Shown here piece by piece: positions 5,481 through 7,683 of a DNA stretch of 23,525 nt. The DNA lies in IMG/VR virus record IMGVR_UViG_2526164619_000010, positions 1 to 23,525 of that record. One strand, written 5' to 3'. Numbering within the stretch: position 1 is the stretch's first letter; each line of letters opens with the position of its first letter. The translations under genes were made by a program, and so were the position numbers. The stretch comes from a virus. Its lineage: Duplodnaviria; Heunggongvirae; Uroviricota; Caudoviricetes. Under the pieces are notes generated by a model, which was not told where the DNA came from, did no database searches, and saw nothing but the letters and a program-made list of their open reading frames with translations.

Positions 5481-6044
5481 GTGCTGACAACGCAAAAACG
5501 AAAATTTGCGCTGGCGCTCATGTCCGGGAAAAACAAAACAGCGTCAGCCATTGCCGCCGGTTATTCGGCGAAGACCGCCAGGGTTAAAGGCTCGCAGCTG
5601 GCAAAAGATCCGGAGGTGCTCGCGTTTATAGCCCGTAAACAGTGCGAAACGGTGGAGGTGGATGAGGTTCCTGTTTACCGGCAGAAAAAATCAGAGCAGG
5701 AGGATAAACCCCGTCGCCGTGAGGCGGCTGCAATACCACAGCCGGACGAAAACAATCCGGAGATGCCACCGCCCGCGGTGATGTCTCATGGTATTGAATA
5801 TATGGAGGATGGTCTTCCTGATCCGGTGAAAGCTATGGGGCAGATCCTGGTGGAAAACCTCAGCATTGATCCGAAACTGGCACTGGATGCGGCCTGGCGA
5901 CTGGCGCAGTTCACACACCATAAAAAAGGCGATGCCGGTAAAAAATCGGCAAAAGGTGATGCCGCGAAAAAAGCGGCTAACCGTTTTGCGGTACCACCAC
6001 CACCACGACTGGTGGTGAATAACGATAATGAGGGCAACGGATGA
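5481..6044 (+). CDS. terminase small subunit
   Basis: 187-aa ORF, GTG start at 5481 preceded by GGAGGAGG; N-terminus MLTTQKRKFALALMSGKNKTASAIAAGYSAKTARVKGSQLAKDPEV is a typical small-terminase HTH region; stop overlaps large-subunit ATG (ATGA at 6041-6044). Confidence 0.75.
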   Translation: MLTTQKRKFALALMSGKNKTASAIAAGYSAKTARVKGSQLAKDPEVLAFIARKQCETVEVDEVPVYRQKKSEQEDKPRRREAAAIPQPDENNPEMPPPAVMSHGIEYMEDGLPDPVKAMGQILVENLSIDPKLALDAAWRLAQFTHHKKGDAGKKSAKGDAAKKAANRFAVPPPPRLVVNNDNEGNG

Positions 6045-7683
6045 TACCTGTATGGAGCACGGCCTGCCCGGACTGGGCAGAGCGCCTGAAAAAGGGGCTG
6101 TTGATTATTCCGGCTCCGATTTATCCGGACCAGGCCGCACATGCCCTGGCGATTTTTAAACAACTGCGGATTGTGGATGCACCGGGTAGCCCGATGTTCG
6201 GGGAGTCCTGTGCACAGTGGGTGTTTGACCTGGTGGCGGCTCTGTTTGGCTCCTACGATGCGCAGACCGGTATCCGCCATATCAAGGAAGTGTTCATTCT
6301 GATACCCAAAAAAAACAGCAAGTCCACACTGGCCGCCGGGATCATGATGACGGCGCTGTTACTGAACTGGCGGCAGGCGGCGGGTTACACGATTCTGGCC
6401 CCGACTGTGGAGGTGGCAGCCAACGCCTTCAATCCTGCCAGGGATATGGTACGACGGGACGATGATCTGGATGACCTCTGTCAGGTGCAGACACATATCC
6501 GGACCATCACCCACCGGGTGACGGACACCACCCTGAAGGTGGTGGCAGCCGATCCGAATACGGTGTCCGGTATCAAGTCCGTGGGGACGCTGATTGATGA
6601 GTTGTGGCTGTTTGGCAAGCAGTACAAGGCGGAGGACATGTTACGTGAAGCCATCGGCGGGCTTGCCTCCCGCCCGGAAGGGTTTGTGGTGTATACGACC
6701 ACCCAGTCGAATGAACCGCCCGCCGGGGTGTTCAGACAAAAACTGCAGTACGCCCGGGATGTGCGCGACGGCAAAATTAATGATCCGCACTTTCTGCCGG
6801 TGATATTTGAACACCCTCCTGAAATGGTGGAAAGCGGGGCTCACCTGCTGATGGAAAACCTCGCCATGGTCAATCCGAATCTCGGCTATTCAGTGGATGA
6901 GGCCTTTCTGTACCGGGAGTACCGTAAAGCCCGGGAAGCCGGTGAAGAGACATTCCGGGGGGGCATGTCAAAACACGCCAATGTGGAAATTGGTCTTGCC
7001 CTGCGCTCTGACCGCTGGGCGGGGGCTGATTTCTGGGAAGAGCAGGGCCGTTGTATCAACCTGGACGATATCCTGCGTCGTGCTGATGTGGTGACGGTGG
7101 GGATTGACGGCGGAGGGCTGGATGATCTGCTGGGGATGTATGTGATTGGGCGTGACCGGGAGACCCGCGAATGGCTGGGCTGGGGCCATGCCTGGGCGCA
7201 TGAAACCTCGGTGGTCTGACGGAAGAGCGAGGCGTCCCGGTTTCAGGATCTTGTTGCCTGTGGAGATATGACCATTGTCCGGCGTGTCGGGGATGACACG
7301 GCGGAAGTGGCGGAATATGTGCGTCGCATTCATGAGGCTGAGTTACTGGGCCATATCGGTATTGACCCGTCAGGGGTGGGGCAGATTCTGGATTCACTGG
7401 CGGAATTGTGGTGGGGATAAGCCAGGGCTGGAAACTAGGCGGGGCCATTAAAACCACCGAGCGCAAACTGGCTGAAGGGGTGCTGGTGCATGGTGACCAG
7501 CCCCTGATGGCCTGGTGTGTCGGCAATGCCCGGGTGGAGCCTAAAGGTAACGCCATTCTTATCACCAAACAGGCCAGTGGACGGGGAAAAATTGACCCGC
7601 TGATGGCGCTGTTCAATGCGGTCTCCCTGATGTCCCTTAACCCGGAACCGAAAAAGAAAGAATATGCGGTTTTTTTCATATAA
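6041..7683 (+). pseudogene. terminase large subunit (Terminase_1/HK97 type) inactivated by an in-frame TGA (7217-7219) and a 1-bp deletion near 7400-7416
   Basis: N-terminal 392-aa ORF with Walker A-like LIPKKNSKST; reading continues in frame after the TGA (RKSEASRFQDLVACGDMTIVRR...) to TAA at 7418; the C-terminal 91 codons (7408-7683, ...GNARVEPKGNAILITKQASGRGKIDPLMALFNAVSLMS) are in the adjacent frame. Combined length ~547 codons fits an intact large terminase. Confidence 0.8.

Follow-up and report, generated by a model that had tools for sequence, protein, structure and literature searches.

The window, a 23,525-nucleotide stretch of DNA (positions 1–23,525 of the IMG/VR virus record IMGVR_UViG_2526164619_000010), corresponded to contig AKMY01000042.1 of the Shigella flexneri K-315 draft genome (GCA_000268165.1), with 100% identity over the 17.2 kb fetched. 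It carries a prophage remnant in which the large terminase gene, terL, occupies positions 6041–7683. The order of the neighbouring genes was that expected around a terminase of this type, with a truncated HNH endonuclease gene, the small terminase gene terS, terL, a fusion of a Peptidase_S78 protease and the capsid protein, and the portal gene. The terS stop overlaps the terL start by 4 bases. The terL gene itself was found in three pieces, and the features of the terminase region were as follows:

Positions 5481–6044 (plus strand): terS, the small terminase gene, an intact open reading frame (ORF) matched by tblastn over residues 1–187 at 97% identity, with Pfam Terminase_2 in the L005 assembly.
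Positions 6041–7219 (plus strand): terL fragment 1, 392 codons and the TGA, covering the whole ATPase domain and the beginning of the nuclease domain. Alignment with the HK97 TerL structure 6Z6D placed Walker A (KKNSKS, codons 90–95), Walker B (LIDE, codons 184–187) and the catalytic Asp356 (GIDGG) here. The missense changes S21L, T52M, V78I, F308G and A390S, private to the lineage of the window, are in this fragment.
Positions 7217–7219 (plus strand): the nonsense codon TGA (context TGA-C), where a C-to-T transition at 7217 has altered the Arg393 codon CGA.
Positions 7220–7420 (plus strand): terL fragment 2, 66 codons between the TGA and a TAA made by the frame shift, in which the translation and the alignments place the catalytic Asp442 (HIGIDPSG) as well as the missense change D437G.
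Positions 7400–7406 (plus strand): the junction of a 19-bp deletion, from which CGGAAGCCGGGATCCCCGA was lost, with a surviving CGGAA copy at 7401–7405.
Positions 7401–7683 (plus strand): terL fragment 3, encoding the end of the nuclease domain in the −1 frame, in which the mechanical ORF starts at GTG 7408. The catalytic Asp525 (GKIDPLMA) lies here, as does one private synonymous change, at 7437.

The single uninterrupted ORF of about 553 codons that characterizes intact genes was thus absent, the ATG-initiated ORF from 6041 stopping after 392 codons at the TGA. Beyond it, the original frame reads on as RKSEASRFQDLVACGDM and so forth for 66 codons, until the TAA at 7418–7420. The −1 frame is open from 7366, homology resumes in it at 7401, and it ends at the TAA at 7681–7683, as seen from the ORF list, Pfam, tblastn and the translation. 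By tblastn, query residues 454–553 of intact TerL fell in a different frame from the preceding part. In a 553-residue intact homologue, Pfam placed TerL_ATPase at residues 65–224 and TerL_nuclease at residues 276–535. In the window, PF03354 (TerL_ATPase) matched residues 65–224 (E = 2e-11), whereas PF20441 (TerL_nuclease) was recovered in fragment 3 over profile positions 216–280 of 286, that is the last 65 positions only.

The terminase of phage HK97 served to place the functional residues. In HK97 TerL, Walker A includes K57 and K60, Walker B includes D153 and E154, and the nuclease centre is formed by D302, D388 and D471 (PMC9410871). As the numbering of the 6Z6D chain runs 10 above that of the paper, this offset was applied in the alignment. 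The intact homologue aligned with 6Z6D over residues 85–534, and the HK97 residues corresponded to K91 and K94, D186 and E187, D356, D442 and D525. HK97 gp2 (PDB 6Z6D; PMC9410871) has the same two-domain architecture, with the Walker A double lysine, the Walker B DE pair and the three nuclease aspartates all aligning, and an HNH gene upstream, but it is only a distant relative in sequence (E = 1e-9) and its nuclease centre is built from one chain. The HK97-type ATPase domain of the window gene, with Walker A and Walker B, was preserved. The codons of the three nuclease aspartates were also kept, but they no longer belong to one polypeptide, D356 preceding the TGA, D525 following the shift and D442 lying between the two lesions. 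Because there is one aspartate per fragment, a complete nuclease active site is impossible in a single translation product. The largest possible product would be a 392-residue stub made of the ATPase domain and about 117 nuclease residues, with five missense changes. From the established role of TerL, cos cleavage and productive packaging by a terminase without a complete nuclease domain would be abolished.

Both lesions were defined by alignment with the terL genes of phage YYZ-2008 and of the E. coli CE10, YZ_2_1 and cM8a prophages. Position 7217 is a C, within a CGA codon, in all four reference genes. The sequence-only reading had described a point nonsense change in a frame continuous across the TGA, with no rearrangement, and the C-to-T change at CGA, with the frame otherwise kept, agreed with it. 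It had also expected TGG as the ancestral codon, and this was rejected in favour of CGA (Arg393). The window terL measures 1643 bp and the intact genes 1662 bp, a gap of 19 bp which was the first sign against the loss of a single base proposed for the G-rich run at 7408–7416. This run, GTGGTGGGG, proved identical in the intact homologues, and the proposal was discarded, as the missing DNA is the 19-bp block CGGAAGCCGGGATCCCCGA just upstream, between positions 7400 and 7401. The frame break itself is real and the conserved C-terminus does resume in the −1 frame, as had been noticed. A single-base loss was deduced because 19 equals 18 plus 1, which has the same net effect on the frame. The deletion removed about six residues from the segment AEAGIPDG (codons ~454–460). 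The lost block opens with CGGAA, and so does the sequence that follows it, and because these 5-bp direct repeats flank the deletion, the breakpoint is ambiguous from 7400/7401 up to 7405/7406. Such a repeat-flanked 19-bp loss would be the signature of replication slippage or of a microhomology-mediated deletion, a mechanism deduced from the repeat.

The two lesions were recovered in independent sequence data. The exact 392-residue product of fragment 1, on record as EIQ21528.1 from S. flexneri K-315, was present on at least 10 contigs. Six of these were placed, in three NCBI assemblies (one being the contig of the window) and three Logan assemblies (ERR6004966, ERR200337 and ERR6006326). All six assemblies carried both the TGA context and the deletion junction (GGATTCACTGGCGGAATTGTGG). 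Between positions 6041 and 7683, not a single base differed between the window and the other five. These are nonetheless distinct assemblies, which differ from the window elsewhere, for example by a single-nucleotide polymorphism (SNP) at 10550 and, in one assembly, by a 3-bp indel within terS. The six isolates are close to clonal, with 0–2 SNPs in 6–10 kb. Compared with the intact orthologues the lesions are derived, all references having CGA and the 19 bp. Among 5,426 complete E. coli genomes, the junction was not matched by a 38-nt probe that seeds only across it, a 56-nt junction probe gave two-piece matches only, spanning 75 bp, and the best match to the 56 bases around the TGA was 54/56. 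An exact-pattern scan of GTDB, with one genome per species, gave no match to the junction. On these comparisons, the combination of the TGA and the 19-bp deletion is specific to this S. flexneri lineage.

The sequence-only reading had named errors in the deposited consensus at 7217–7219 or 7408–7416 as the finding that would overturn it. If the TGA, the frame break or both were errors of the draft, the real gene would be intact, and the draft does give some ground for suspicion, the window being one base short of the other assemblies in four homopolymers (near 5352, 7722, 10427 and 13775), which points to probable homopolymer errors. None of the four lies in terL, a loss of 19 bp of complex sequence does not resemble a homopolymer miscall, and the six independent assemblies were identical over the whole gene, TGA context and junction included. 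A consensus error is thus highly improbable, and it was rejected on the agreement of the six assemblies, five of them independent of the window. The TT-to-GG change at 6962–6963, which makes a run of seven Gs in terL, was likewise shared by the six assemblies, which makes it a real change and no homopolymer artefact.

Could the three pieces still be translated as one protein? Readthrough of the TGA, as tryptophan or selenocysteine, followed by a −1 frameshift in the 7366–7417 overlap would restore a near full-length terminase. The TGA is followed by a C, TGA-C being the leakiest stop context in E. coli, and the overlap of the two frames, about 50 nt long, would in principle let a −1 slip join them again. 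But the site is not conserved, since all the intact homologues encode the protein in a single ORF with CGA and the additional 19 bp. The overlap has neither an X XXY YYZ slippery heptamer nor an A or T triplet, and no Rfam family, the selenocysteine insertion sequence (SECIS) included, reached threshold anywhere in the window. Two rare events would be needed together, the rejoined protein would still be short of about six residues, and the excess of missense changes described below argues against selection on the gene. We attach next to no probability to such programmed recoding.

The window terL differed from all four references at eight codons, by six missense changes, the nonsense change R393* and one synonymous change (L472). 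The missense changes were S21L, T52M, V78I, F308G (the tandem TT-to-GG change), A390S and D437G. Between intact terL genes, the ratio of non-synonymous to synonymous polymorphism (pN/pS) was 0.06–0.16, with for instance 8.5 non-synonymous and 35.5 synonymous differences between YZ_2_1 and YYZ-2008. The contrast between the window and the intact genes was significant by Fisher's test, whether nucleotides (p = 0.0006) or codon events (p = 0.0016) were counted. On these small counts, purifying selection on this copy is relaxed, and the pattern suggests that terL has been drifting for some time. Two independent lesions in one gene had been taken as a sign of relaxed selection on packaging, and the six missense changes against one synonymous change (p ~0.0006–0.0016), together with the wider damage to the prophage, bear this out.

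Another possibility is that the 392-residue ATPase fragment has been kept and is used by the host, for example with terS as a dominant-negative inhibitor of packaging acting on superinfecting HK97/Stx-type phages. Walker A and Walker B are intact in the stub, terS is intact upstream and translationally coupled, and the same allele was unchanged in six isolates. As these isolates are near-clonal, the shared allele is uninformative on selection. All five private substitutions of the stub are non-synonymous, including the radical F308G, which points to drift; moreover the element has lost its early region on the left, and an insertion sequence (IS) has taken the place of the sequence immediately 5' of the HNH gene. 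Retention of the fragment is in our opinion very unlikely. There is also a slender chance that the ATPase-only stub and terS, if expressed, might act as a decoy poisoning HK97- or Stx-type packaging motors in a dominant-negative manner, an exapted anti-phage defence.

It is very probable that the segment 6041–7683 is a dead copy of an HK97-type (cos, HNH-associated) terL, located in a prophage remnant of S. flexneri K-315, inactivated by two unrelated mutations and drifting neutrally. A C-to-T transition turned Arg393 CGA into TGA, and a deletion between the CGGAA repeats, which we propose to have come from slippage or microhomology, removed 19 bp, hence about six residues, and moved the frame to −1. 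Three ORF fragments with one catalytic aspartate each and no full nuclease domain are the result. The neutral drift of the gene would follow from the inability of the element to go through a full lytic cycle. Several points weigh against this interpretation or limit it. The substitutions are few, with eight events; the loss of terL function is read from the sequence; every contig with the 392-residue product also has the deletion, which leaves either lesion free to have come first; and decay is incomplete, with reading frames still open in terS, in the protease-capsid fusion and in the connector, head-closure, gp10-like, gp17, major tail, M, L and K genes. Some of these remaining open genes may have a residual role. 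This terL copy is nevertheless a genuine pseudogene under relaxed selection, a case of ordinary prophage decay which calls for no new mechanism.

Intact relatives of the gene are common. Of the 5,426 complete E. coli genomes, 1,255 carried a full-length 1662-bp terL, as did 93 phage records, mostly from Stx-converting phages and phage YYZ-2008; identity reached 98.3% and was typically about 98%, too high for the reading frames seen in the window to be a product of chance. The terL of E. coli lambdoid and Stx-converting prophages (YYZ-2008 gp51, YP_002274187.1; WP_176258401.1 in YZ_2_1) showed 96–98% nucleotide identity over the whole gene, and prophages of the YYZ-2008 and YZ_2_1 type have the same neighbours, HNH, terS, protease-capsid fusion and portal. 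Relative to them, the window copy is distinguished by TGA in place of CGA at codon 393, the deletion at codons ~454–460 and the six missense codons. The gene was broken independently in other copies of this prophage family, as shown by their different lesions: the E. coli CE10 terL has a 1-bp insertion and is annotated "frameshifted" (L001, 3001–4663), and in the Stx2 phages 1717 and Stx2a_F349 (AP012530.1, NC_011357.1) terL is interrupted by IS629.

The rest of the prophage was compared with the intact prophages of E. coli cM8a, YZ_2_1 and 09-02E and with Pfam. Outside the terminase genes, the following lesions were located:

Positions 3675–4932 (minus strand): an IS3-family element with orfA and orfB (Pfam rve/HTH_21 and HTH_Tnp_1), at a break of colinearity with an intact prophage (L004).
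Positions 4933–5191 (plus strand): the HNH endonuclease gene (Pfam HNH), truncated at its 5' end, the first 36 codons being gone at the IS boundary (tblastn recovered query residues 37–121 only).
Positions 14,799–17,561 (minus strand): an IS66-family element at a break of colinearity (Pfam DDE_Tnp_IS66 and TnpB_IS66; tblastn).
Positions 20,045–20,047 (plus strand): the tape measure gene with an amber codon, TAG where the intact 09-02E gene has CAG, splitting the ORF into 17,618–20,047 and 20,108–20,779.
Positions 22,899–22,906, around 22,902 (plus strand): a 4-bp deletion (GATA) causing a frameshift in tail assembly gene I, seen by alignment and by a change of tblastn frame at 22,894–22,903.

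About 5.8 kb of the intact prophage has given way to the IS3-family element, with the loss of DUF826, holin, YdfR, lysozyme, Rz and other genes as well as the 5' end of the HNH gene, and homology with the intact prophage begins again at 4933. Lysis genes gave no tblastn matches in the window. HNH nucleases are reportedly needed for cos cleavage. This family is the partner of HK97-type terminases (GP74 in PMC9410871). A mechanical 100-residue "HNH" ORF at 4889–5191 begins inside the IS. The IS66-family element, whose TnpC (15,159–16,520) and TnpB (approximately 16,766–17,160) are encoded on the minus strand, has taken the place of the 3' end of the tail chaperone gene G, all of T and the first eight codons of the tape measure gene. 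The amber codon of the latter is a C-to-T nonsense change, as is the terL TGA. Towards the left end of the window, an IS1 (751–1254; L005, 1–5214) lies directly between host genes (yedA-type EamA, vsr, dcm and an HD-domain gene) and the SASA esterase gene of the late region. The early region, with the integrase, regulatory and replication genes, is missing here, to the left of IS1. Other essential modules have thus been lost or damaged besides terL, namely lysis, HNH, tail G and T, tape measure, gene I and the early region.

Heavy IS-mediated pseudogenisation is usual in Shigella, and terminase pseudogenes in IS-riddled Shigella prophage remnants are a known and expected phenomenon; here the 392-residue product was already annotated in the deposited record. 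Scattered IS1, IS3-family and IS66-family elements, missing modules, frameshifts and nonsense codons make the window a typical example of a cryptic or defective prophage as seen in Shigella and E. coli; PMC7744054 discusses models of how prophages degrade. The biological significance of this particular copy is small. With the two lesions now exactly defined, this S. flexneri clone has a clean lineage marker. The remnant's own terminase would be unable to package DNA, a point that matters for the prediction of inducible prophages.

The four homopolymer differences, checked in each of the five assemblies reaching the site, consisted of seven As in place of eight near 5352 and of six Ts in place of seven near 7722, 10427 and 13775; at 10427, the T run was also short relative to the E. 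coli references. They are probably sequencing errors in the K-315 draft, which makes other apparent frameshifts in the window, notably that of the portal at 10427, unsafe as biology. The portal gene (10,084–11,243) is split into 10,084–10,446 and 10,449–11,243 only by the missing T at 10427, and is a single 386-residue ORF in the other Shigella assemblies. Unlike the terL lesions, this frameshift is likely an artefact. In all of the intact reference prophages examined (L001, L003, L004 and L011; window 9874–12,301), the NCBI annotation gives the "phage portal protein" as frameshifted, over a segment which comprises a 56-residue ORF, the 386-residue portal and a 353-residue ORF. The last of these (11,240–12,301), downstream of the portal, has a weak CBM_5_12 match near its C-terminus and contains tandem 162-bp (54-codon) repeats of about 88% identity at 11,456–11,847. 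The copy number of this repeat varies, YZ_2_1 having one unit more. In terS, the 3-bp indel seen in one other isolate (L009) concerns an ACC repeat at 5993–5995, within a run coding for PPPP.

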